From contig CAYOZJ010000002.1 of NCBI GenBank assembly GCA_964408485.1, forward strand, positions 69,235 to 133,234: a stretch of 64,000 nucleotides of DNA, given 5' to 3'. Below are positions 8,025 to 63,745 of the stretch, in pieces. Under the pieces are notes generated by a model. It made no database searches. It was not told the origin of the DNA and worked only from the letters and a program-made list of their open reading frames with translations. The stretch's first letter is position 1. Each line of letters begins with the position of its first letter. The position numbers were made by a program, and so were the translations under genes. Source of the stretch: an uncultured Gammaproteobacteria bacterium. Lineage in GTDB: Bacteria; Patescibacteriota; Microgenomatia; Levybacterales; UBA12049.

Positions 8025-8222
8025 TGCATTCATAGCAGTATGCAGTAAGAATTATGGGCATATTGCGTAGAGCATAAAGCATAATTCATATATTTATACA
8101 TTGGGCAAACACCGTGTAATTCGGTGGAAGTGCCGCTACTGTAAATCCAGAAAACCATGTATAAATCATTCTCGAGCAAGAACGTTTTTGGGCACGTCCT
8201 TCTCGAGAGAGAGGGATTTTTT

Positions 8223-8885
8223 ATGGAATTAATCAAAAAAGTAATACAACAATGGAGTAAATCGATTGCTATTATTCTTTTTCTTGTCGTTGCGTTTTTT
8301 GCAGGCAATATTACTGTGTTCTCAAAAAGTGACCACCCGCAAGTTTTAGGAGCAAAAACCCAGATTACTCCTATTCCCACACGTACGCCGATTCCAACAA
8401 CAGTGCCAGTTACGATTGTTAACAATATTATTGTTCCAACATCAGTTCCATTAGCCATATCCCCAACACCTGTTCAGTTACCAATCGTTATCGTTGTTAC
8501 CCCCACGCCAACCCCGATTGAATCGGGGCCAACTATTTCACCCACAGAAATACCTATACCAACTGTTACGCCAACACCAGTTTCTCAAACAATAACCATA
8601 GATGTTGACTATGCCGGTGAGCATGCAGAAAGTATCTATACCACTTCAATTGCTGCAGGGGAAAGTGCATGGCAAGCTGTACAAGATGCAATCGGGTTAG
8701 CAAATATTCACTACACGGATTATGGAGGAAGCCTTGGAATATTCATTACCGGATTCAACGGAACAGACGCTAACTCAAGTCAATACTATGATTTCCAAGT
8801 AAATGGAATCTCGTCTAATGTAGGAGTTTCCTCATATACCGCTCAGGATAAAGACACCTTGAAGTTTGTGTTAACCGGTTTCTAA
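8223..8885 (+). CDS. secreted Pro/Thr-linker protein with C-terminal DUF4430-like (transcobalamin-like B12-binding) domain
   Basis: TM/signal IAIILFLVVAFFAG, a long P/T/V linker, and a C-terminal domain ITIDVDYAGE...WQAVQDA...HYTDYGGSLGIFITGFNG...YYDFQVNG that matches the DUF4430 fold family. Starts at ATG 8223 after GAGAGGGATTTTTT. Confidence 0.5.
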   Translation: MELIKKVIQQWSKSIAIILFLVVAFFAGNITVFSKSDHPQVLGAKTQITPIPTRTPIPTTVPVTIVNNIIVPTSVPLAISPTPVQLPIVIVVTPTPTPIESGPTISPTEIPIPTVTPTPVSQTITIDVDYAGEHAESIYTTSIAAGESAWQAVQDAIGLANIHYTDYGGSLGIFITGFNGTDANSSQYYDFQVNGISSNVGVSSYTAQDKDTLKFVLTGF

Positions 8886-21835: not shown

Positions 21836-22347
21836 AATTATATTATACTATAAGTTTTAAAGTTGTCAATAAGGGAGTAAAAGGAGCTTGTTTATAACTT
21901 GTGTTGCGGGGCTAGGAGTTGCGCCTAGCCTGTGAGATTATGCATCTGTAATCTCTGATTACTCAGAGTGTCGGACTATATCTTCCAGCCAGTGGCTGGT
22001 TCAGCGTATAGTCTCTACGGGTTCTCACCAAGTGGCGAGTCTTCCCTCGGTATTGTCCTCCGTCAACTGACAGATAGGAGTCCACCGATATAGCTGAATT
22101 CAATTCTCATTATTGCTAATAAGATGGCCCATTATGTTAAGCCTCACGTGCACTGTACACTACCCCGCGTATGAGCATAGTATAGCATTATTTCATTGAT
22201 TTAGCCAGCCTCAATTGGTATACTTAGGGTACTTTCTAGTCACCTGAACTTGATTCAGGATCTCATTTTAAGAATGAGATCCTTCGTTTTACTCAGAATG
22301 ACAGGAGAAGATTGCCACGGAACATTCGTTCCTCGCAATGACGATAC
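21836..22347. other. ~500-bp ORF-free, hairpin-rich region (candidate structured RNA and/or repeat array)
   Basis: No ORF of 60 aa or more on either strand. Several perfect hairpins: GGCTAGGAGTTGCGCCTAGCC, CCAGCCAGTGGCTGG, GATTATGCATCTGTAATC, GATCTCATTTTAAGAATGAGATC. The 3' end carries family repeats (CTCAGAATGACAGG, GATTGCCACG...CCTCGCAATGACG) abutting tRNA. Confidence 0.3.
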
Positions 22348-22420
22348 GCCAGGGTAGCTCAGTGGTTAGAGCACCACATTCATAACGTGGCGGTCGGCAG
22401 TCCGACTCTGCCCCCTGGTA
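22348..22420 (+). tRNA. tRNA with CAU anticodon (Met, or Ile2 if lysidinylated)
   Basis: GCCAGGGTAGCTCAGTGGTTAGAGCACCAC... anticodon loop TTCATAA (CAT). The acceptor has a G1-U72 wobble and the T-loop TCCGACT is atypical (C55), so I am less certain it is functional. Confidence 0.55.
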
Positions 22421-22441
22421 CTAAGGAATTCTCAATTTTTT

Positions 22442-24657: not shown

Positions 24658-24756
24658 TTGACCTAATTTACCTAATTTCTAAAGAAATCCCAATTTCAAA
24701 ATTAGTTATTGGGTATTTTTTAGGTTAATTAGAAATTAGTAATTAGAAATTTTTGT

Positions 24757-31841: not shown

Positions 31842-31906
31842 ACGAGTATTAAGGGGTTAGTATTAAGTATAAAGCAAAATTTCCTTAATACTTTATACTA
31901 AATTCT

Positions 31907-33885: not shown

Positions 33886-33931
33886 ATAAAAAATCTGCAG
33901 ATTTATGTAAGGAATTTGTCAGGGATAAGAG

Positions 33932-36294: not shown

Positions 36295-37320
36295 TTGTCA
36301 TGGTATACTACAAAGTACATGAAAAAGTTACTTCTGATTGATGGAAATGCCATTTTACACCGTGCATTTCATGCCTATCCACCAGTATTTTCTGACAAAG
36401 AGGGTAATCCTACAAATGCTATTTATGGCTTTTATGCAATGCTTTTAAAAGTTATGGAGGAGGTAAAACCAGATTTACTCACCATTTGCTTTGATCAAGG
36501 TGCGCCGACTTTTCGCATGAATATGTATGCTGGGTATCATGCCAATAGGCCAAAAATGCAGGACACATTGGGAGTACAGGTCGAGCCCTTGCGTGAGTCT
36601 TTGCGTAAAATAGGAATTCCCGTTGAAGCAATCGATGGATATGAAGCAGATGATTTAATTGGGACATTATCTCATCAAGCGTCAAGCGTAAGGCGTAAAG
36701 GGGAAAGTTTGGAAACAATAATCCTAACAGGTGACAGGGATCTTTTGCAGTTAATTAACGAGCATACCAAAGTTCTTATGCCAATAACAGGAATTACGAA
36801 GTCTGTCTTAATGGATGAAGGAGCAGTTGAGGCAAAATACGGCATAAAGGCAAGTCAGGTAATTGATTACAAAGCCTTAGTTGGCGACCCGTCTGATAAC
36901 TATCCAGGTGTTGGGGGAATAGGTCCTAAAACAGCGGCAACACTTCTTAAAGAGTGGGAAACATTGGAGAATTTGTATACCCATTTGGGAGATATAAAAC
37001 CTGAGTTGAGTCAAAAATTAGCTCAAGATGCAGAGCAGGCAATGCTATGCAAGAAGTTGGCAACCATTCAGCTAGACGTACCTGTTCATTTAGATATAAA
37101 GAAAGCAGATGTAGACAATTTTTCTCTGGAAAAGTTTTTGGATATTTTCGAGCACTTCAATATTCACTCATTGGTTAAGAGGCTTAGTCTAGCGCTAGGA
37201 AGTGAAGCACCTATAACACGAAGCGAGACGAAGCAATCTAGTTTAAAGAAAGATTCTGGACAAGCCAGAATGACGAAAGAAGAAAAGAAGAAAGAGGATA
37301 GTCAACTAGAGCTACTTTAG
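36295..37320 (+). CDS. 5'-3' exonuclease (stand-alone Pol I 5'-nuclease/FEN domain) with repeat-derived C-terminal tail
   Basis: LLLIDGNAILHRAFHA and GDRDLLQL, H3TH region. The C-terminal ~40 aa (SETKQSSLKKDSGQARMTKEEKKKED) derive from repeat DNA. Confidence 0.85.
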   Translation: MSWYTTKYMKKLLLIDGNAILHRAFHAYPPVFSDKEGNPTNAIYGFYAMLLKVMEEVKPDLLTICFDQGAPTFRMNMYAGYHANRPKMQDTLGVQVEPLRESLRKIGIPVEAIDGYEADDLIGTLSHQASSVRRKGESLETIILTGDRDLLQLINEHTKVLMPITGITKSVLMDEGAVEAKYGIKASQVIDYKALVGDPSDNYPGVGGIGPKTAATLLKEWETLENLYTHLGDIKPELSQKLAQDAEQAMLCKKLATIQLDVPVHLDIKKADVDNFSLEKFLDIFEHFNIHSLVKRLSLALGSEAPITRSETKQSSLKKDSGQARMTKEEKKKEDSQLELL

Positions 37321-37502
37321 TGTGGTCTGTGTGAGATTTTTCTTGCATGTAATTCTCTAAAAATTGCTTCCATGCCTCCTCGTTCTCTCGTAGCGACTGT
37401 TTCTATTGGTGACCTTGTTTCACCAGCTAACATTTTTTGAGCAGTCCTTCTTTTTGCTCGGGTAATCTTTGCTTCTTGGGTTTTACTTCGCAATTCGGTC
37501 AT
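37317..37502 (-). CDS. hypothetical small basic protein
   Basis: 61 aa, Arg/Lys-rich. Confidence 0.25.
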   Translation of the reverse strand: MTELRSKTQEAKITRAKRRTAQKMLAGETRSPIETVATRERGGMEAIFRELHARKISHRPH

Positions 37503-37556
37503 CTGTCTGAGTATGAAGCAATAGAATGTCCTGTCAATGTGTCAATAAAAAGATAG

Positions 37557-38300
37557 CTATTCTGATTTCTTCTTCCAATTTACGGCCTTAATAAGTGGAG
37601 CAAAAAGATCTTTATCCGGAGGATAAGTAACTGACTCTCGCTCTTCCTTTGTGGGTTTTCTTTCAACAAAAGTAATATCAGGAATATCAATAATAACAGC
37701 TAAAGGTTGTTGTTCTTTACCTTCACCCATGGTAAAGCCTGCTGCAATAGACAAGCCATCAACGAAATTTGTCTGTGTATATTTCATTTCTTTTCCAAAA
37801 ATATCTTTTGTCCCAATGTAATTTTTTATAGGCATAAATCCACACCAGCCAAGTCCAACACTTACAGAGCCATTGCGAAGGGGAAGATAGGTGCTGTCTG
37901 CAATAATTACGCCAACATGGTTTAGGCCGTACGTTTTACGCAGGAATTTCCATATTCTTTCAGCAGAGACAAAAGAATCTTTTGGAAGAAGGACATAAAC
38001 CCTATCTGCATTAGACTCATCAATGCCAGCCCAATACATAACAATATTGTCCTTGATGGTGAGTATACTTTGCCATTCTTTTGGCCAATCAGGATTACTC
38101 AGATATCTATCTGCTTCTTGATGGATTAGTTTTTCTTTATCTTCTGTAAGTGGTGCAACGCGGCCTTCTGTAATGCTGACAATCTTAGATGTAATGACAA
38201 CAATAGTGTTTTCTTGAAGTTGAGGAAGAGAGTCGTTAAGAATTTCCTCAAGCTTATCTCCTATAACGATCTTTTTTGTTTTAATTGGTGTTATTAGCAT
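37557..38300 (-). CDS. CofE-like (F420-0:gamma-glutamyl ligase family) protein
   Basis: IKTKKIVIGDKLEEI...VVITSKIVSITEGRVAPL resembles the CofE N-terminal signature (AQKIVSKAEGRVV). Confidence 0.45.
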   Translation of the reverse strand: MLITPIKTKKIVIGDKLEEILNDSLPQLQENTIVVITSKIVSITEGRVAPLTEDKEKLIHQEADRYLSNPDWPKEWQSILTIKDNIVMYWAGIDESNADRVYVLLPKDSFVSAERIWKFLRKTYGLNHVGVIIADSTYLPLRNGSVSVGLGWCGFMPIKNYIGTKDIFGKEMKYTQTNFVDGLSIAAGFTMGEGKEQQPLAVIIDIPDITFVERKPTKEERESVTYPPDKDLFAPLIKAVNWKKKSE

Positions 38301-38393
38301 AGAAGAAAATTGCTCTATTGCTGAATTACTAAATTGTTCTAGAAAAACAATATAACAATTTAAGAATTTAACAATTAGTATAGTGAGATTGCT

Positions 38394-39101
38394 TCACTTC
38401 GTTCGCAATGACGAATCACTTTTTAACCAGCGGACGCCGAGATACACTAGTGGTGTTTCAATAATAGACATAAAGCAGCGAAGAAGCCAATAGGGAAGAG
38501 CTATGCCTGCAATAAAGGAAATATTTGCTCCAAAGGATACATTGAGGGCCCAGAATGCTAGCGTCATAAAGATTGCTGTATCAAAAAACTCAGAGACAAA
38601 ATTACTTACATTTGTCCTGAGCCAGAGGTTTTTCTTGCCTAATTTTTGCCTCATTTTCGCAAAAATAAATACGTCAGAGAATTCAGAAATCGCAAATGCA
38701 ATAAGGGATGCTGCAGAAAAACGAATGGATATACCAAAGATTGTGTTGTACGCATTATTTGTTGAAAGAAATCTGGTGCTTGGAGGAAGGGAGGTCGCTA
38801 ATATAGAGAAAAGAAGTAAGAAAAAAATCATAAAAAGACTACTTCTGACAATGCTTTGTGCGCGGGCCTTGCCATAGACCTCTACAATAATGTCATTTGC
38901 TGCGTAAATGAATGGCAAAATAAAAATAACAACAGTTGCATTAAGGTGAAATGTACCAAGAGTTGCGATAGGAAATGTTTTAGCACCCATGACTTCGGAA
39001 ATAATTACGCAGGTAATATAAAATGCTGCAAGGAGGTCAAATTTCTGGATATTTATCATGATGTAGAGCATGATACGGGAAGTATATGAGGCTGTCAACA
39101 T
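38394..39101 (-). CDS. YhhQ/DUF165 family queuosine-precursor transporter-like membrane protein
   Basis: Polytopic. PFIYAANDIIVEVYGKARA resembles the YhhQ/VUT family core. The last 10 codons and the stop derive from a repeat element. Confidence 0.5.
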   Translation of the reverse strand: MLTASYTSRIMLYIMINIQKFDLLAAFYITCVIISEVMGAKTFPIATLGTFHLNATVVIFILPFIYAANDIIVEVYGKARAQSIVRSSLFMIFFLLLFSILATSLPPSTRFLSTNNAYNTIFGISIRFSAASLIAFAISEFSDVFIFAKMRQKLGKKNLWLRTNVSNFVSEFFDTAIFMTLAFWALNVSFGANISFIAGIALPYWLLRCFMSIIETPLVYLGVRWLKSDSSLRTK

Positions 39102-39183
39102 GGTAAATTACTATACAAAGTGGGTCAGATTGATACATTGTATTTTAATAAGCGGGTCGTATAATTCAACTTGTTGAAAGGGG

Positions 39184-39405
39184 GTGAAAAATATGGCAAC
39201 ATCAGAAGGAGATTCATATCTTGTTTACGATCTTAAGCGAGGGGGTGAAATGGTAACTGTTTGGAGACCAACAGCTCCTAAAAACGGCCCAGGATATTCT
39301 GCGCAAGAAGCAGGTGTGCAGATTGCAGCTGCAATTCATCAAGGGAAAAGAAATGCGAGAATAGAGGTTGTTCGCCCAGCAGATACAAGACGTTTAAGGG
39401 TATAA
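39184..39405 (+). CDS. small hypothetical protein (dispersed small-protein family candidate)
   Basis: 73 aa, SD AAAGGGGGTGAAAAATATG. Motif EMVTVWRPTAPKNGPGYS. Confidence 0.45.
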   Translation: MKNMATSEGDSYLVYDLKRGGEMVTVWRPTAPKNGPGYSAQEAGVQIAAAIHQGKRNARIEVVRPADTRRLRV

Positions 39406-39446
39406 GTCCAATTGTTTTGAACTAACGAACAGGTTATACTTGTTTC

Positions 39447-40727
39447 ATGCCTAGAATAGCCCTGGTTCACGATTATATTAAAGAATACGGTGGAGCGGAA
39501 AGGGTACTAGAGACTTTGCATGAAATGTATCCCAATGCACCTGTATTTACCCTAGTATATTGTCCAAAATTCTTAGGACCACATAAAGATAGATTTAAGA
39601 ATTGGGATATCCGCACATCATTTCTTCAGTCTATCCCTTTTAAAGAAAAATTTATTAGCATCTTTCGGCTTTTTGCCCCATTTATTTTTCCATTTTTCAA
39701 CTTTGCTGGGTACGATGTAATCATTGTAAGCGCAACAGGGGCATATAGTCCCAACGTAGTTGGGACAAGAGGTAAGAAGGAAGAGGTAAGAAGTAAGGAA
39801 AGTGACCATACGCCATACGCCATACGCCATACGCCGTATCACATCTGCTACTGCCACACGCCGCCCAGATATTTGTATGGATACGCAACAGCTAGAGAAC
39901 TAAAAAAGAATTCTCTTATTCGATTATTGGCAGAATGGATGAATAAATGGCTTGTGCGAGTAGACAAAAAGTCCAGTAAAAATGTGGATTTGTATATTGC
40001 CAATTCAGAAGAAGTACGAGCACGAATTAAGAAATTTTATAACAAAGATGCAATTGTTGTGTATCCACCAGTTGATGTTCCTTCAGTGTCATTCCTGCGA
40101 AGGCAGGAATCCAGGAAAGGAACTGGATCCCGGATCGGAGTCCGGGATGACAATTTTTATCTAGCAGGCGGGCGTCTTGCCAGGCCAAAGCATTTCGATT
40201 TAATCATCAAGGTAGCAAATGAATTAAAGTTGTCCCTCAAGATTTTTGGGAAAGGATTTGCAGGGTATGGAGAAGAGCTGTATGATTTGGCAAATAGACT
40301 ACAGCAAGCAGACTACAGTAAAGAAGCTGTAGTCGGTAGTCCGAAAGCTGTAAGCGTTATTACGTTTTTGGGAGAAGTAACAGATGAAGAAAAAATACAT
40401 CTTATGTCCGGTGCTAAAGCATTTATTATGAGTAGTGAAGATGAGGATTTTGGCATAACACCAGTTGAGGCAATGGGGGTTGGGACACCGGTGATTGCAT
40501 ATAAGAGTGGTGGACTTAAAGAAACAGTTATTGATGGCAAGACAGGAGTATTTTTTGACATGTTATCTGCAGAAAGTCTAATTGGGGCAATAAAGAAGTT
40601 TGAAGCCCTTCGACAAGCTCAGGGTAAAAGACTGTCTGAGAATTGTATTGCGCAAGCGCAAAAATTTAGCAAAGAGAACTTTGAAAAAGGAATTCGTTCT
40701 GTCATCTCTAAAATCTTGTCATCCTGA
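39447..40727 (+). CDS. glycosyltransferase family 4 (GT1-fold) with multiple in-frame repeat insertions
   Basis: MPRIALVHDYIKEYGGAERV N-terminus and C-terminal EDFGITPVEAMGVGTPVIA (E-x7-E region). Inserted peptides EEVRSKESDHTPYAIRHTPYH and SFLRRQESRKGTGSRIGVRDD. The stop lies inside a GTCATCCTGAG repeat. Confidence 0.8.
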   Translation: MPRIALVHDYIKEYGGAERVLETLHEMYPNAPVFTLVYCPKFLGPHKDRFKNWDIRTSFLQSIPFKEKFISIFRLFAPFIFPFFNFAGYDVIIVSATGAYSPNVVGTRGKKEEVRSKESDHTPYAIRHTPYHICYCHTPPRYLYGYATARELKKNSLIRLLAEWMNKWLVRVDKKSSKNVDLYIANSEEVRARIKKFYNKDAIVVYPPVDVPSVSFLRRQESRKGTGSRIGVRDDNFYLAGGRLARPKHFDLIIKVANELKLSLKIFGKGFAGYGEELYDLANRLQQADYSKEAVVGSPKAVSVITFLGEVTDEEKIHLMSGAKAFIMSSEDEDFGITPVEAMGVGTPVIAYKSGGLKETVIDGKTGVFFDMLSAESLIGAIKKFEALRQAQGKRLSENCIAQAQKFSKENFEKGIRSVISKILSS

Positions 40728-40942
40728 GCTTGCGAAGGATATATTCTTCACTTTGTTTAGAATGACAAAGGAAAAAGATTTCTCACTTCGTTCGAAATGA
40801 CACTCTTCTTACTTATTTCTAACCTCCTCTTACACAATATTAATTGTAATTTCATTTAAGAGTTCTATCCTGTCAGGAAGCTGTTGGGGAATCGTTGGCC
40901 ATAGGTCAAGTTAAAGATTCTCTGCAGGAATATAATTAGCTT

Positions 40943-42776: not shown

Positions 42777-43997
42777 ATGATCCTCAGGTCAATTCTTCTT
42801 CAGCATTTTCGCAATTATACCCAGGAAAAGTTTGATTTTTCAGAAACTCTCACTCTTATTATTGGAGTAAATACTGCCGGTAAAACCAATCTTTCTGAGG
42901 CAATATATTTACTTGCAACAGGGAAGAGTTTTAAGGCAGGTAATGATACATTTATGATTGCTTTTGGACAAGAGATTGCAAGGGTGGGAGGATTGCTGGA
43001 AGATGTCATCCCCGACCAGATCGGGGATCCAGGAAAAGAACTGGATTCCCGCTTTCGCGGGAATGACAGTAAAAAAAAGGATGACGGTTTGGACAAGACT
43101 AAAATAGAAGTAGTTATCGCCAGTCCTCAGGCAACTGGAGGGAGATTTAGCAAGAAATTTCTTATAAATGGTGTTGGAAAATCGCGGAATAGTTTGCGAG
43201 GTATGCTCCCAATTGTCCTTTTCCGGCCTGAAGAATTGGACATTATTATTGATGGACCAAGTCTCAGGCGCGCATTTCTTAATGAAGTACTTGAGCAGGC
43301 AGATAAAGAATATGCCCAAGCATTATCTGTCTTCGAACGGTCTCTTAGGCAGCGCAATGCGCTTCTTCGTATAGCTCAGGAGACTGGAAAACGAAATAGT
43401 GAGCAATTTGATTATTGGGACGAGCTTCTTATTGAGAGTGGGCAGACAATTACACAAAAGCGTGAAGAATTTTTGGTATTTATCAATTCATCCACTCATG
43501 ATATTTTTCCTTTACAGACTTTTTTCGATAAGAGTATTATTTCTCGCGAACGGTTAGATGGATATGAGATGGCAGAAGTCGGGGCAGGGGTGACCCTTGT
43601 AGGGCCTCACAGAGATGATTTCTTTGTGAACATGGAATATCCTGGTTTTAATCCCAACCCTCATCCCAGCTCGCCGAGGCAAGCTGACCTTCTCCCAAAA
43701 GGAGAAGGAGAACAAGGTGATATCCACTACGTGGATATACGATTTTTCGGTTCGAGGGGGCAGCAGAGACTTGCAGTGCTCCAGTTAAAAATGCTCCAAA
43801 TACAGTATTTGGAAAAGAAACTAGGAGTATTGCCACTTCTTATCTTGGATGATATTTTTTCTGAATTAGATAGTAACCATATTCAGCTTGTTTTGGATAA
43901 CGTGAAAGGATGCCAAATCATTCTAACCACAACGCATAGGGAGTTTATTCCACAAAAGGTATTACGTGAGGCTAGTGTGGTAGAATTAGAGCGATAA
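42777..43997 (+). CDS. recF: DNA replication and repair protein RecF with in-frame palindromic-element insertions
   Basis: MILRSILLQHFRNY, Walker A GVNTAGKTNLSEAIY and C-terminal LILDDIFSELD. Inserted VIPDQIGDPGKELDSRFRGNDSKKKDDG. Confidence 0.85.
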   Translation: MILRSILLQHFRNYTQEKFDFSETLTLIIGVNTAGKTNLSEAIYLLATGKSFKAGNDTFMIAFGQEIARVGGLLEDVIPDQIGDPGKELDSRFRGNDSKKKDDGLDKTKIEVVIASPQATGGRFSKKFLINGVGKSRNSLRGMLPIVLFRPEELDIIIDGPSLRRAFLNEVLEQADKEYAQALSVFERSLRQRNALLRIAQETGKRNSEQFDYWDELLIESGQTITQKREEFLVFINSSTHDIFPLQTFFDKSIISRERLDGYEMAEVGAGVTLVGPHRDDFFVNMEYPGFNPNPHPSSPRQADLLPKGEGEQGDIHYVDIRFFGSRGQQRLAVLQLKMLQIQYLEKKLGVLPLLILDDIFSELDSNHIQLVLDNVKGCQIILTTTHREFIPQKVLREASVVELER

Positions 43998-44093
43998 TTG
44001 TTATATTGTTATCGCTCGCAATGCTCGCTTATTGTTACATGGTTAACAATTTAGCCATATAGCAATTTAGCAATTTTTTAACGCAGTTAGTCT

Positions 44094-44972
44094 ATGCAAC
44101 AATTTGACATAAAACAACTGAAACAGCTTTACATTCCACCAGCTGGATCTCATAAAGGGGACAATGGAAAGGTTATGGTTATTGGCGGAAGTCAGCTTTT
44201 TCATGCTGCATCACTTTGGTCTTTGGAAATTGCATCAAAAATTGTAGATATGGTTTTTTACTCATCAGTTGATGCAAACAATGCACTCGTTGAAAAAGAA
44301 AAGGAAGCATTTAGAAATGGGATTATTGTTCCAAGAAATAAAATTGAAGATTACATTGCAGAGGCAGATAGCGTACTTATTGGGCCAGGATTACCAAGAG
44401 AGAATGGCTACGAGGCAGGCGATGACGATACAAAAATTCTCACCGAAAAACTTCTTAAAAAATATCCCAATAAGCGATGGGTAATTGATGGTGGTAGTTT
44501 GCAGGTGATTAACCCTGACCTTATTCCACAAAATGCTATTCTTACGCCACATCATCAAGAATTTGAAAGACTGTTTGGAAAGCGTCAAGCGTCAAGCGTC
44601 AAGCGTAAAGGAGAGAAAGAGATTGCCGCGGTCGCTAAAGACTCCCTCGCAATGACGGTTGGGGAGATGGCAAAGAAATATCACTGTATTGTTTTACTGA
44701 AAGGTCCAGAAGATGTTGTTTGTTCGGAAAATGAATGTGTAAGAGTTCCGGGAGGTAATGCAGGTATGACAAAAGGTGGAACAGGAGATGTGCTTGCAGG
44801 GCTTACAGCAGCTTTATATTCCCAAAACGCTGACGCATTCTTAGTAGCAACTTCTGCAAGCTATATCAATAAAAAAACAGGTGAGTCTCTTTTTGAAAAA
44901 CAAGGCTATTACTTTAACTCAAGTGATTTAGTGAAGGAAATCCCAGGAGTCATGAAAGAATTACTGCTCTAA
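44094..44972 (+). CDS. ADP-dependent NAD(P)H-hydrate dehydratase / YjeF C-terminal carbohydrate-kinase-like domain protein
   Basis: GDNGKVMVIGGSQLFHAASL and GGTGDVLAG. Carries the insertion KRQASSVKRKGEKEIAAVAKDSLAMTVGE. Confidence 0.75.
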   Translation: MQQFDIKQLKQLYIPPAGSHKGDNGKVMVIGGSQLFHAASLWSLEIASKIVDMVFYSSVDANNALVEKEKEAFRNGIIVPRNKIEDYIAEADSVLIGPGLPRENGYEAGDDDTKILTEKLLKKYPNKRWVIDGGSLQVINPDLIPQNAILTPHHQEFERLFGKRQASSVKRKGEKEIAAVAKDSLAMTVGEMAKKYHCIVLLKGPEDVVCSENECVRVPGGNAGMTKGGTGDVLAGLTAALYSQNADAFLVATSASYINKKTGESLFEKQGYYFNSSDLVKEIPGVMKELLL

Positions 44973-45266: not shown

Positions 45267-45354
45267 ATTATTTGTTTATTTCGAGTTAATGCGTTAACGG
45301 GTTAGATTTCTTAACTCGTGAACTCGTTAGCCCGTTAATATTTTAATAAAAATT

Positions 45355-49874: not shown

Positions 49875-51374
49875 ATGGTTGATGTTGTTGCAGATTTACA
49901 TCTGCATTCTCGTTTCTCCAGAGCGGTTAGTCCTCAAATGACTCCTCCCACAATGGCACAATTTGGAGACCAGAAAGGGATAGATCTTTTGGCAACAGGA
50001 GACTGGACACATCCGGTATGGTTTCGGGAAATCAGCAACTTTCTCACAGAAGCAGAAGAAGGACTGTATAAAATCAAGAATCCAACTCCCCAAAATGAAA
50101 AGACACGATTTCTTCTTTCTGTAGAAATTGCCTCTATTTATTCCCAAGGAGGGAAGGGAAGAAGGATTCACAACTTAGTATTTGTTCCATCCTTCGAAGT
50201 GGCAGCAAAAGTAAATAAAGAGCTGATAAAACGCGGATTTAATTTATCTTCTGACGGGAGGCCAATCATAGGATTTTCCTCAAAGAATTTACTTTCACTT
50301 CTCCTTGAAGTAGATGAGCGGTGTCTTCTTATTCCCGCTCATGTCTGGACGCCATGGTTTGGCATTTACGGACAGATGTCTGGGTTTCAAAGTCTTGCGG
50401 AAGCATTTGAAGAATTAGCACCAAAGATTTATGGAATAGAGACAGGTCTTTCAAGTGATCCGGAGATGAATTGGCAAGTTGATGAGCTAAAGACAAGGTC
50501 AATTCTTAGCTTTTCTGATGCACATTCTCCTGCGAAAATGGGGCGAGAAGCAACGGTTTTTCGCTTGGACAGCTTGTCTTATGAGAATATTCGTCAAGCA
50601 ATAATGGCGCCAAGCCTTCGTTCCGTCATTGCGAGCAAAGCGAAGCAATCTAATATAAATAAGGAGAAGATTGCCACGTCGCAAGCTCCTCGCAATGACA
50701 ATGTTAATAAAGTACTCTACACCATAGAATTTTATCCAGAAGAGGGGAAGTACCATTATTCAGGCCATAGAAATTGCGGAATTACCATGACGCCACAAGA
50801 GCAAGCAGCAGCGCATAATATTTGTCCTGTATGTAAAAGGTCTCTTACCGATGGGGTTATGAGACGTGTTCAGGAACTCGTAGAAAAGGACCCTTCGGCA
50901 TCGGTTCGGCAAGCTCACGACGAGGGCTCAGGGCAAGGTCCCTTTGGAAGTCATACGCCTAATAAAAGTGGCCTTGTCTGGATAACAGACCCTAAAGAAA
51001 ATCGTCCACCATTTGTCAAAATAGTACCGCTCCAGGAAATAATTAGTGAGGCAATTGGGAGTCCTTTTGCAAGCCCGAAGGTAAAAGTAATCTTCGATAT
51101 GCTCTGTAAAGACGGACTCTCTGAATTTAATGTACTCCTTAAATTGCCCTTACCAGATATTGAGCGAATAAGTCTTAGTATTACTTCAAAAGAATTTGCT
51201 GAAAAAATTACTGATGGAATAAAGAAAGTACGTGCAGAGCAAATTGTGATTAAGCCAGGATACGACGGTGTATTTGGGGTAGTAAAGATTTGGAGTGATG
51301 AGAATGACAGTGAAAACCCTTCGACTTCGCTCAGGGAAAAAGATACTGAAGAGCAGATTGGATTAGAGTTTTAG
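49875..51374 (+). CDS. Endonuclease Q (EndoQ)-like PHP-domain nuclease with zinc finger
   Basis: DLHLHSRFSRAVSPQMT PHP N-terminus, LIPAHVWTPWFGIYG, SFSDAHSPAKMGREAT, KYHYSGHRNCGI and CPVCKRSL zinc finger, RPPFVKIVPLQEII. All are collinear with archaeal EndoQ as I recall it. Confidence 0.7.
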   Translation: MVDVVADLHLHSRFSRAVSPQMTPPTMAQFGDQKGIDLLATGDWTHPVWFREISNFLTEAEEGLYKIKNPTPQNEKTRFLLSVEIASIYSQGGKGRRIHNLVFVPSFEVAAKVNKELIKRGFNLSSDGRPIIGFSSKNLLSLLLEVDERCLLIPAHVWTPWFGIYGQMSGFQSLAEAFEELAPKIYGIETGLSSDPEMNWQVDELKTRSILSFSDAHSPAKMGREATVFRLDSLSYENIRQAIMAPSLRSVIASKAKQSNINKEKIATSQAPRNDNVNKVLYTIEFYPEEGKYHYSGHRNCGITMTPQEQAAAHNICPVCKRSLTDGVMRRVQELVEKDPSASVRQAHDEGSGQGPFGSHTPNKSGLVWITDPKENRPPFVKIVPLQEIISEAIGSPFASPKVKVIFDMLCKDGLSEFNVLLKLPLPDIERISLSITSKEFAEKITDGIKKVRAEQIVIKPGYDGVFGVVKIWSDENDSENPSTSLREKDTEEQIGLEF

Positions 51375-51512
51375 GCTTCTTGACTTTTGATTGCAAATTT
51401 CTCCATACTAAATATGTAGTAAGTATTAGGTATTACGTATTAAGTATATTAAGGAACTTTATTTATACATACTACTTACTACTTAATACAAAACGGGAGG
51501 GGGGTGAAATAT

Positions 51513-52002: not shown

Positions 52003-52235
52003 TGTCATTTCGAACAAAGCGAGAAATCTCATTCAAGTATTTTTCTTCTTCTGTACTTTTGTGCCGACAAAAGATACCAAAAACTCTCGCCAAGGTCTTG
52101 TTCGAGCTTTCAAAAAAGAGCTCCAAAGCTAAAAGTACGCAGTTCGCTTTCACTTTCTTTACGCTTTTATGCCCTTTTTCTTATGCACTCACTGCAAATT
52201 GGCGAATAAGAACCATTTACATGAGGAGTATAATA
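52003..52235 (+). repeat. ~200-bp dispersed repeat copy A (upstream of pth)
   Basis: Near-identical core to 63530..63745 (..CTCTCGCCA.G..CTTGTT..AGCTTTCAAAAAAGAGCT.CAAAGCTAAAAGTACGCAGTTCGCTTTCACTTTCTT.ACGCTTTT..). Confidence 0.7.
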
Positions 52236-53858: not shown

Positions 53859-53930
53859 TTGGGTCATCCTGGCTTGTCCAGGATCTAGATTCTGGATGCG
53901 CTTTGCTTACCAGAATGACAGGAGAATTTT

Positions 53931-54494: not shown

Positions 54495-54576
54495 CAGCAG
54501 TATGCGATATGAATAATGCAATAAAAATAAAATACACCGTAGGCCTACTGCTTAATTCATATTGCTTTTTGCACAA

Positions 54577-54858: not shown

Positions 54859-54895
54859 TTATTAGTTGATTAACGGGTTAATGTGTTAACGAGTT

Positions 54896-55285
54896 ATGAA
54901 AATAACCAAATTTGAAGACCTCGATGTTTGGAAATTAAGTTTAGAGATAACAAAGTTAATATACGATCTAACATCTAAGAAATTATTTTCTCAAGATTAC
55001 GGTTTAAAGGATCAAATAAGAAGGGCAATTGTATCTGTTAGTTCTAATATTGTTGAGGGGTTTGAAAAAAACAATAATAATGAATTTATTAGGTATCTTC
55101 TGATTGCGAAGGGATCTGTTGGGGAGGTAAGGAATCAATTGTATGTGGCTTTAACAGTACAATACATTTCTCGAGATGAGTTTGAACAAATTAATCCAAA
55201 GCTTTTTATATTAGCAGATCAAATTGGTAGGTTTGTTATTTATTTAAAGACGAAACGAAATAACAAAGAATTCCAAACCCGTTAA
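54896..55285 (+). CDS. four-helix-bundle protein (TIGR02436 / 23S rRNA IVS protein / Avd-like)
   Basis: FEDLDVWKLSLEITKLIY...SNIVEGF...LLIAKGSVGEVRNQL signature of the family. Start and stop codons lie inside flanking palindromic repeat arms. Confidence 0.8.
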   Translation: MKITKFEDLDVWKLSLEITKLIYDLTSKKLFSQDYGLKDQIRRAIVSVSSNIVEGFEKNNNNEFIRYLLIAKGSVGEVRNQLYVALTVQYISRDEFEQINPKLFILADQIGRFVIYLKTKRNNKEFQTR

Positions 55286-55304
55286 CCCGTGAACTCGTTA
55301 ATTA

Positions 55305-57687: not shown

Positions 57688-57817
57688 GTGTCATCCTGAG
57701 CAAGCTAGAGGATATATTCTTTCCCGACTCGGGACTAGGTTCGCAGAACCGTTGCACACGTTCAGAATGACAATAGGACTGGATCCCGGATCGGAGTCCG
57801 GGATGACAAATTAATAT

Positions 57818-59637: not shown

Positions 59638-59735
59638 GAAGCAAGAATCATGAATTAAGAATTATGCAGAGGGTTTATTAAAAATAAAGTACCTTATATC
59701 CATAATTCATACTTCTTGATTCATAATTCATATTT

Positions 59736-62327: not shown

Positions 62328-62484
62328 AATAAAGAGTATACCGAGTTCTTAACAAATATGTCAAGAAACAAAAGCATATTTCTATTGCTAAATTACTATA
62401 TTGCTAAATTGTTATTAACAATATAAGAATTTGTTAATTTAACAATTTCGTTTTACTCAATGTGACAGTTGTTTGTAATACTAC

Positions 62485-63504: not shown

Positions 63505-63529
63505 CAGAAGCTTGATTCAGTCTCCTTTC

Positions 63530-63745
63530 ATTGTCATTTCGAACAAAATGAGAAATCTTTTCTTTTTAACTTCTCTTGTACCGACAAGAGAAGCAGAAGC
63601 TCTCGCCAGGCCTTGTTCCAGCTTTCAAAAAAGAGCTTCAAAGCTAAAAGTACGCAGTTCGCTTTCACTTTCTTAACGCTTTTCCGCTCTTTTTCTCTCG
63701 CAGTCACAGCGGATTGGCGAATAAAGACCGCGGAAAATTTACCTC
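63530..63745 (+). repeat. ~200-bp dispersed repeat copy B (upstream of partial ORF at 63780)
   Basis: See copy A at 52003..52235. Confidence 0.7.

Follow-up and report, generated by a model that had tools for sequence, protein, structure and literature searches.

Background

Ssn-related motifs (SRM) are hairpin repeats that are bound and cut solely as single-stranded DNA (ssDNA) by SsnA, a small GIY-YIG nuclease (PMC11893778, Chenal et al., Nat Commun 2025). The Neisseria form of the repeat, NTS (CGTCATTCCCGCGMAVGCGGGAATCYRG), contains the dRS3 element, and ssnA typically lies between repeats in the order NTS-ssnA-NTS. A GTC 5' of the palindrome governs cleavage and a C 3' of it governs binding, the C being the most critical for SsnA, and the published pattern for the superfamily is HGTCWYN(0-2)YYVSBRHN(0-5)WNVSBRGN(0-2)RNCYNB. 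Two percent of the repeats of N. meningitidis lie inside coding regions, and dRS3/NTS repeats have been proposed as recombination boundaries in Neisseria (PMC11893778). Here we describe an oriented hairpin repeat, probably of the SRM superfamily, that supplies the last codons and the stop codon of a Vut_1/YhhQ-type transporter gene in a Levybacteria-like genome of the candidate phyla radiation (CPR, Patescibacteria). The gene lies in a 64-kb stretch of contig CAYOZJ010000002.1, which was analyzed at its full length and is referred to below as the window; the repeat copy at the gene's end is referred to as the focal module.

Palindromic repeats that enter genes have been described before. A passage in PMC10969869 presents the RPE family (Rickettsia palindromic elements; Ogata et al. 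2000) as units of ~100-150 bp that carry their own conserved peptide and occur in frame in housekeeping genes.

Results

The Vut_1 gene ends inside a hairpin repeat

The open reading frame (ORF) in question runs from 39101 to 38394 on the minus strand, comprises 235 codons and ends in ...GVRWLKSDSSLRTK*. It is assigned to PF02592 (Vut_1/YhhQ) with E=1.8e-37, and judging from the alignment of homologues its true start is probably near 39059 (MINIQKF...). The junction with the next gene is composed as follows.

38394..39101, minus strand: ORF of the Vut_1/YhhQ-type (queuosine-precursor) transporter, from Pfam and homologue alignment
38397..38414, minus strand: module-encoded last six codons of the transporter, TCG TCA TTG CGA ACG AAG, read as SSLRTK
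38385..38413, minus strand: focal hairpin module CGTCATTGCGAACGAAGTGAAGCAATCTC, 29 nt, from pattern and repeat searches; laid out as CGTC-ATTGC-gaacgaagtgaa-GCAAT-CTC, an SRM/NTS-like unit of the GTCATTGCGAGC...GAAGCAATC subtype
38394..38396, minus strand: Vut_1 stop codon TGA, inside the module loop, where the family consensus is CGA
38306..38376, no strand assigned: AT-rich inverted repeat with an 8-nt period, from a repeat search, filling the remaining spacer up to the start of the next gene
37557..38300, minus strand: F420-0:gamma-glutamyl-ligase-like gene (F420_ligase), downstream of Vut_1

The original prediction for this locus translated the minus strand at the Vut_1 end as ...RWLKSDSSLRTK*, exactly as we find, and proposed that a repeat forms the last ten codons and the stop of the YhhQ-like gene. 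A repeat does form the terminal codons and the stop, but the codons number six rather than ten; the first of them (TCG) starts at the second base of the module, and the TGA that follows AAG is also derived from the module. The proposed kinship with a copy at 50623 is borne out as well: GTCATTGCGAACGAAGTGAAGCAATC (38412..38387, minus strand) and GTCATTGCGAGCAAAGCGAAGCAATC (50625..50650, plus strand) are the only matches in the window to GTCATTGCGARC-N(4-14)-GAAGCAATC, a pattern that occurs 0 times in 100 shuffles. The repeat search independently pairs 38386-38413 with 50624-50651 as 28-nt arms with 89% complementarity, and a looser 12-mer pattern has 8 matches in the window against 0.38 expected. 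When the module is read in six frames, four are open, one reverse frame is always stopped (caaTGAc), and one forward frame contains a stop with the T allele only.

Boundaries, subtypes and alleles of the repeat family

The window was scanned for GTC followed by a stem starting with AT (>=5 bp), a loop, the second stem arm and a C, with shuffled sequences as the control. Sixteen high-confidence modules were found where 1.2 were expected, and imperfect copies occur besides. Units measure 23-36 nt and are arranged singly, in tandem, or as inverted pairs of ~60-80 nt with 10-40 nt between the units. The stem arms covary across the subtypes of the window (ATTGC/GCAAT, ATTTC/GAAAT, ATCCT/AGGAT, ATTCTGG/CCAGAAT, ATCCTGG/CCAGGAT, ATTCCCGC/GCGGGAAT and ATCCCGGA/TCCGGGAT); the fact that the two arms change together in all subtypes argues for a hairpin requirement. 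CGTC or GTC stands directly 5' of the palindrome in the focal copy and in all window subtypes, and a C stands directly 3' of it, as GCAAT-C in the focal copy and as ...AT-C at the ends of the 16 window modules.

Metagenome contigs were then scanned with the focal 28-mer, allowing five degenerate positions. The 28-mer occurs in at least 120 contigs, of which 80 were analyzed in detail; GC content among these ranges from 31 to 75%, and since CGTCATTGCGAGCGAAGCGAAGCAATCT is near-invariant over this range, its sequence is constant regardless of host composition. The limits of the repeat were defined from 111 copies of the focal subtype on unrelated contigs. Conservation ends sharply at (c)CGTCATTGCGAGCGAAGCGAAGCAATCT(C), that is (c)CGTCAT...AATCT(C), and the flanks are random; the GTGATT that had been counted as part of the repeat thus falls outside it. 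An inverted partner lies within 90 nt of 54% of these copies, with no conservation of the spacer between, and neither a target-site duplication nor a duplicated flank was seen in the 111 copies. A miniature inverted-repeat transposable element, with terminal inverted repeats and target-site duplication, was ruled out because conservation ends at the 29-nt core and the flanks are random.

At the position that provides the Vut_1 stop, 86% of copies carry C (CGA) and ~14-18% carry T (TGA). The T allele is also found in other subtypes of the window, at 40801, 40766 and 63533, and the 28-mer of the Vut_1 end is found without change in contig L093, which is unrelated and has 62% GC; the allele with the stop is therefore not tied to Vut_1. 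TGA had been predicted to arise from the GTCAT/ATGAC context. This is incorrect for Vut_1, where it is the C-to-T allele of the loop CGA, and for the GT4 glycosyltransferase gene discussed below, where TGA sits in the stem CCTGAG.

Two observations concern the metagenome copies. In loci L025-L144, CGTCATTGCGAGCGAAGCGAAGCAATCT yields 'junk' peptides such as SLRGAQRRSN, HCEERSDEAIS and IASLRSQ* in spurious high-GC ORFs. Likewise, apparent cases of a stop inside a module in the high-GC contigs proved to be spurious ORFs across module pairs and were not used as evidence.

The junction in relatives

The Vut_1 set comprised 120 sequences including the query (64-100% identity), and the relatives are metagenome-assembled genomes (MAGs) of Levybacteria/Microgenomates. 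In 118 of the 119 other homologues the motif 'GV[KR]WL' is followed by 2-9 residues (median 4) that are rich in lysine and variable. The query tail after WL is KSD-SSLRTK, which at nine residues ties with the longest tails in the set. The orthologue comparison called for by the original prediction shows final residues that are not homologous, with the query diverging exactly at the module boundary. The claim that elements replace native 3' ends therefore stands insofar as the stop and tail codons are given by the module, but the displaced codons number at most 1-4, are not conserved, and include no functional end. A native tail that resembles the repeat by coincidence has the shortness of the sequence in its favor and nothing else; it is effectively refuted by the 26-nt pattern match with 0 expected, by the identical 28-mer in the unrelated 62%-GC contig L093, and by the lack of the tail in 118 of the 119 other homologues.

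Junction DNA was examined in reference genomes (12 loci) and in another 6 metagenome contigs. In most of the examined loci the native stop directly adjoins the next start or overlaps with it, for example AAATGAAA (L003/L005) and TAGGAAATG (L002), and no module overlaps the Vut_1 stop in the 12 genome loci or the 6 further contigs. Most relatives have a RibD_C gene between Vut_1 and F420_ligase. Modules are much rarer in the related loci than in the window.

One homologue shares the arrangement of the query. P0083, on contig L001, ends in WLKSD-PSLRAR*, encoded by GAT CCG TCA TTG CGA GCA AGG TAA AGCAATCTCA. Here the same module lies at the identical codon, the stop (TAA) occupies the same loop position, and an AT-rich repeat with an 8-nt period follows. 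P0083 and the query are 68% identical and belong to different Vut_1 clades, each with element-free neighbors at ~85%; the presence of the module in two clades indicates either two gains or lateral transfer of the junction. In L019, the closest relative (84%), a different GTCAT module lies 9 nt after the native stop, which indicates that the Vut_1 junction repeatedly acquires modules.

L001 is an independent assembly that is continuous through Vut_1, the module and the next gene, and this bears on the possibility that the MAG contig of the window was mis-joined at a repeat common to co-occurring genomes. Suspicion of a mis-join arises from Logan contigs of the same genome as the window, from sample SRR9179560, which are 100% identical to the window and broken at module edges: L145 starts at 38413, the first base of the focal module, and L024 stops at 63510, a short way ahead of the module at 63533. 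In addition, NCBI is the sole recorded source of the exact Vut_1 protein. Logan assemblies use k=31. A repeat of 28-31 nt breaks k=31 graphs, yet ordinary reads span it, and the breaks at module edges indicate that identical modules recur in that community. Both Vut_1 flanks are most similar to one relative, L022, and because the stop lies inside the module the ORF would end in the same way whichever copy followed. Given these points and the continuity of L001, we regard a mis-join as very improbable.

L001 bears equally on the reading frame. The Vut_1 TGA and the F420_ligase ATG share a frame across 38300-38396, separated by 31 sense codons without a further stop, an arrangement that could suggest programmed read-through fusing the two proteins. 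TGA is an ordinary stop here, used by 10 of the 58 window genes; the stop in L001 is TAA, followed nine codons on by TAG; and a frame of this length would be open by chance with a probability of a few percent. Programmed read-through is accordingly an exceedingly improbable account. As a separate observation, the consensus CGA allele would fuse Vut_1 and F420_ligase, and the same-frame arrangement, which is not conserved in L001, is probably due to chance.

The module may mark a boundary of recombination or cassette exchange, such that the Vut_1 allele would derive from another Levybacteria lineage and its 3' crossover would coincide with the module or adjoin it, in analogy to the dRS3/NTS repeats beside diversified genes in Neisseria. 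This proposal is compatible with an SRM-type repeat at the junction. Window Vut_1 nests with L002/L003/L009 (~82% identity, against 71% for L022), and for the window F420_ligase, GT4 and exonuclease the nearest sequences are those of L022 (52%, 58% and 66%, against ~41% for L002/L003). Twenty-five consecutive diagnostic sites covering residues 25-208 are all of clade A, while the module tail and downstream genes resemble clade B. Both the window and L001 differ from their nearest Vut_1 relatives in downstream gene content, and L004, an A-type Levybacteria lineage similar to L003, shares its sample with the window genome. Against this, the neighbor-joining trees carry no support values and F420_ligase evolves fast (40-52% identity). 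A-type Vut_1 also stands beside GT4 and exonuclease in L019 and L017, differential loss of RibD_C and F420_ligase can explain the synteny, and the breakpoint cannot be placed because diagnostic sites are absent between residue 208 and the module. On balance we consider a recombination boundary unlikely. The underlying observation is a gene-tree discordance over 36295-40727, in which lineages with 81-84% identity in Vut_1 reach only ~41% in F420_ligase; Vut_1 is also unusually conserved (65-84%) compared with its neighbor genes (40-66%).

The focal subtype is associated with Ssn-like genes in other genomes

Literature searches with the literal repeat string returned mostly primer coincidences; the useful match, obtained via the GTCATTCCCGC subtype, was PMC11893778. 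Four window copies fit the strict SRM pattern (40123-40152, 43004-43032, 43041-43068 and 57779-57808) where 0.07 would be expected, and the copy at 43041-43068 is the Neisseria NTS with one mismatch. The NTS-type window copy has a predicted stability of -9.0 kcal/mol (z=-5.8).

Clustering of small ORFs near the modules of the 80 loci yielded one real recurrent family, a protein of ~95 aa belonging to PF01541 (GIY-YIG) with the signature 'YIYIMTN...IYTGVTNDLKRRVYEH...GFTKKY...LVYYE...REKQIKG'. A hidden Markov model (HMM) of this family matches genes in L079, L080, L093, L101 and L111, and weakly in L143. GTCATTGCGA modules lie within 400 nt of the gene in the first five of these contigs but not in L143, and in L101, L080 and L093 they flank it on both sides. 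Comparison of the family's sequence with PMC11893778 shows that its residues Y8/Y19/E66 are spaced like the SsnA catalytic mutants Y6/Y17/E64. The CGTCATTGCGAGCGAAGCGAAGCAATCT subtype is thus Ssn-associated in other genomes. Among the matches listed, a search for Ssn-like proteins returned a very large family with 80-95% identity across phyla, mostly on short contigs; to judge by these sequences, such a spread would be the behavior expected of a mobile, repeat-flanked gene.

Other modules of the window

Modules elsewhere in the window were found at gene ends, in spacers and within genes.

40718..40742, plus strand: GTCATCCTGAGCTTGCGAAGGATAT module at the end of the GT4 glycosyltransferase gene, encoding its final two codons and its TGA (40725-40727)
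40743-40766 and 40777-40801, minus strand: two more modules after the GT4 stop module
40088..40151, no strand assigned: inverted module pair in frame within GT4 ('SFLRRQESRKGTGSRIGVRDD'); absent from L020, and the L022 sequence differs there
43005..43067, no strand assigned: inverted NTS-type pair, both units fitting the SRM pattern, in frame within RecF
50625..50699, no strand assigned: inverted focal-subtype pair in frame within a PHP-like gene ('VIASKAKQS...SQAPRND')
53863..53919, no strand assigned: inverted module pair filling a 72-nt spacer and beginning 4 nt past a native stop (53858)
57690..57807, no strand assigned: three-module cluster filling the 3' spacer of a Fur-like gene and beginning 2 nt past its native stop (57687)
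37252..37274, minus strand: module within the 5'-3' exonuclease, read in frame ('DSGQARMT') in a C-terminal linker that is variable, with the native C-terminal 'QLELL' kept
22280-22342: two tandem modules 5 nt upstream of tRNA-Met (22348-22421)

Eight high-confidence modules, out of 16, fall within real single genes, whose reading frame continues through them. Their hosts are RecF, GT4, NAD(P)HX dehydratase, the PHP-like gene and the linker of the 5'-3' exonuclease, and an EndoIII-like glycosylase has an imperfect copy. Pfam domains span the inserts in RecF (SMC_N, residues 3-391) and NAD(P)HX dehydratase, and alignments identify the in-frame segments as lineage-specific insertions in variable loops and linkers. 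Relatives have other modules at the same protein positions, such as 'GFRVKPGMT' in the GT4 of L022 and 'ISRFARDDK' in the exonuclease of L008.

Two further stops had been assigned to the repeat. That of GT4 (gene 39447..40727) does lie inside GTCATCCTGAG at 40718: the module-encoded end is TTG TCA TCC TGA, and because the protein has the same length (±1 residue) as its orthologues in L022 and L020, just two codons and the stop were replaced. The four-helix-bundle gene (54896..55285) ends ACC CGT TAA, and its TAA (55283-55285) lies in a repeat, CCCGTTAACCCG, but one of a different class rather than the same family, namely a GTTAAC-containing periodic repeat that is inverted on either side of the gene. 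Stop donation as a property of the element does not hold, since half of the window copies are read through in frame and others begin 2-4 nt past a native stop. With spacers of 0-130 nt, an insertion between genes cannot avoid contact with a stop or a start, and a stop is 'donated' when the insertion falls a few bases upstream of one.

The same distribution bears on whether the module is selected as a 3'-end signal, either as an mRNA-stabilizing or terminator hairpin or as a hairpin near the stop that modulates translation. Liang, Rudd and Deutscher reportedly found in 2015 that repetitive extragenic palindromes (REPs) within ~15 nt of stop codons modulate translation in E. coli. Modules begin 0-4 nt from the stops at 38394, 40727, 53858 and 57687, and L001 has the module at the same codon. 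Such proximity is nonetheless expected where modules fill spacers of 0-130 nt; half of the copies lie within coding regions, where a role of this kind would be senseless, and 118 of the 119 other homologues have no module tail. As DNA, the focal hairpin has little predicted stability (-2.2 kcal/mol, z about 0), the fold of the 141-nt junction RNA is no more stable than those of shuffles, there is no T-run or terminator-like site (0 sites in 38150-38500), and a promoter scan of the junction was negative. Selection as a 3'-end signal is therefore improbable: folding and the junction scan gave no evidence of a terminator, promoter or roadblock role for the focal module, and an intrinsic (rho-independent) terminator was ruled out by the lack of sites and the weak stem. 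At the gathering threshold, Rfam recognizes just two tRNAs and a cobalamin riboswitch in the window, with no match on the focal module.

Further repeats and RNAs of the window

AT-rich inverted repeats of 3-4 tandem 7-8-nt units, like that at 38306-38376, fill many spacers and usually lie directly upstream of start codons (also 8030-8090, 24658-24756, 31842-31906, 44040-44080, 51400-51480, 54495-54561, 59638-59735 and 62376-62447). Their unit sequence is locus-specific, for example AACAATTT/AGCAATAT or AGAATCA, and they could be operators, promoters or another mobile class. A second class of repeat in coding sequence consists of tandem 7-mers (AGCGTCA etc.) in frame at 36675-36704, 44581-44621 and ~39790-39830, in the genes for the 5'-3' exonuclease, NAD(P)HX dehydratase and GT4 ('HTPYAIRHTPY').

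The region of the four-helix-bundle gene (23S rRNA intervening-sequence type; 54867-55301) has inverted GTTAACGGGTTAA-type periodic repeats on either side, and similar repeats occur at 45267-45354 and near 33928; the gene with its flanking repeats looks like a small repeat-bounded cassette. A non-coding repeat of ~190 nt is present at 52004-52214 and 63533-63729 (87% identical over 122 nt), beginning with a GTCATTTCGAAC module. One copy lies 5' of the peptidyl-tRNA hydrolase gene and the other 5' of a gene at the window edge; the repeat may be either a composite element or a non-coding RNA. The RecF module pair (43000-43076) gives a sub-threshold Rfam match to WsnRNA46 (RF02625, a Wolbachia sRNA; 27.9 bits, E=0.025), the sole match of the E-value mode, which fits the SRM repeats published for Wolbachia. 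An AdoCbl-II riboswitch (RF01689, 44.3 bits) lies at 8093-8165, upstream of ORF 8157-8885.

Discussion

The focal module belongs to a superfamily of oriented hairpin repeats and encodes the terminal codons and stop of Vut_1. We estimate a probability of about three in four that the Vut_1 end is an SRM-superfamily hairpin repeat sitting on a spacer-less junction, with stop donation as a passive by-product. Under this explanation, the ancestral Vut_1 stop would have abutted or overlapped the next start in a gene-dense, Levybacteria-like genome. A module together with the AT-rich periodic repeat would then have been inserted or recombined into the junction, displacing the native stop and at most 1-4 non-conserved tail codons, and translation would have entered the module and ended at its first in-frame stop, the TGA allele of the loop CGA. 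The new end would be tolerated because the native tail is short and variable, and both it and its replacement are basic; the change was probably neutral for the transporter. We infer the insertion event, its neutrality and recognition by an Ssn enzyme in the window organism; stop donation comes about passively and does not constitute a function of the element.

Several observations weigh against this explanation. The focal copy does not match the strict SRM pattern, and its 5-bp stem has a predicted energy of -2.2 kcal/mol, with z about 0 relative to shuffles. Pattern searches, Pfam and tblastn/HMM searches found no GIY-YIG gene in the window or in the Levybacteria loci, and the Ssn-like matches listed come mainly from Chloroflexota and other phyla outside the CPR. 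The join of Vut_1 to the module is present in one assembly (a MAG) only. Furthermore, no pair of empty and filled sites from near-identical genomes was found, and the insertion point and mechanism were not directly seen.

NTS/SRM repeats are a close counterpart. Like them, the focal subtype is an oriented repeat of 28-30 nt with the order (C)GTC-palindrome-loop-palindrome-C, has many copies that often form inverted pairs, and in metagenome contigs occurs on either side of small GIY-YIG genes, as in the NTS-ssn-NTS layout. It differs in having a 5-bp AT-rich stem and a 12-nt purine-rich loop, which place it outside the published motif. About half of the window copies are intragenic, compared with 2% in N. 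meningitidis (PMC11893778), and the host is a CPR/Patescibacteria genome with no ssn gene seen in the window.

The behavior upon insertion resembles that of the RPE family, in that palindromic repeats lie in frame in unrelated housekeeping genes of a reduced genome, at loops, linkers and termini. The window units are nevertheless 23-36 nt long, single or paired, whereas RPEs are ~100-150 bp with a family-specific conserved peptide. REP/BIME-RAYT systems and REPINs share the short oriented hairpin, the conserved 5' tetranucleotide, the inverted pairs and the flanking of a gene for a putative ssDNA-acting enzyme. The 5' motif is GTC(A) in the window and GTAG in REPs, the partner is GIY-YIG rather than a Y1 transposase, and REPs are essentially extragenic. 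Only GIY-YIG recurs beside modules in the 80 loci, although no genome-wide search aimed at Y1 transposases was made. Finally, the dRS3 element (ATTCCC-N8-GGGAAT) of Neisseria dRS3/NIME arrays is the core of the NTS-type copies of the window, and dRS3/NIME and Correia repeats likewise flank genes, are tied to recombination and diversification, and can alter gene ends. The focal palindrome is distinct from that of dRS3, and the Correia structure of 100-150 bp, with terminal inverted repeats and a TA duplication, is absent, the focal flanks being random without target-site duplication.

There is also a broader and more speculative proposal, to which we give somewhat less credence than to a recombination boundary at Vut_1. 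Ssn-type repeats of CPR/Levybacteria may act as boundaries for ssDNA-mediated (transformation-type) exchange of alleles or cassettes, Vut_1 having been laterally replaced with its 3' crossover at the module. If so, exchange at repeats would explain why the modules at a given loop, linker or gene end differ among relatives, and repeat-bounded recombination would have a major part in shaping both the order of genes and the ends of proteins in ultra-small genomes.

Conclusions

With an SRM-type repeat at the end of Vut_1, the multi-phylum 'junk peptide' repeats (SLRxK*, VIASEAKQS, SFLRRQESR and similar) become tied to the recently described Ssn/SRM system, which is widened to a subtype that the published motif does not capture. 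Three aspects are less usual: this position outside the motif, the extreme conservation of the 28-mer across phyla, and the ~50% of intragenic copies against 2% in Neisseria. New specificities of ssDNA cleavage may be found among the GIY-YIG enzymes associated with the repeats. In practice, the repeats rewrite C-termini, inflate ORFs, break k-mer assemblies at their edges, and can mislead annotation and phylogeny. Overall, the locus is one case of SRM/NTS-type repeats colonizing a compact CPR genome in an RPE-like manner, a finding of real but modest significance: in such a gene-dense genome, the repeats enter coding sequence and gene termini at an RPE-like frequency.

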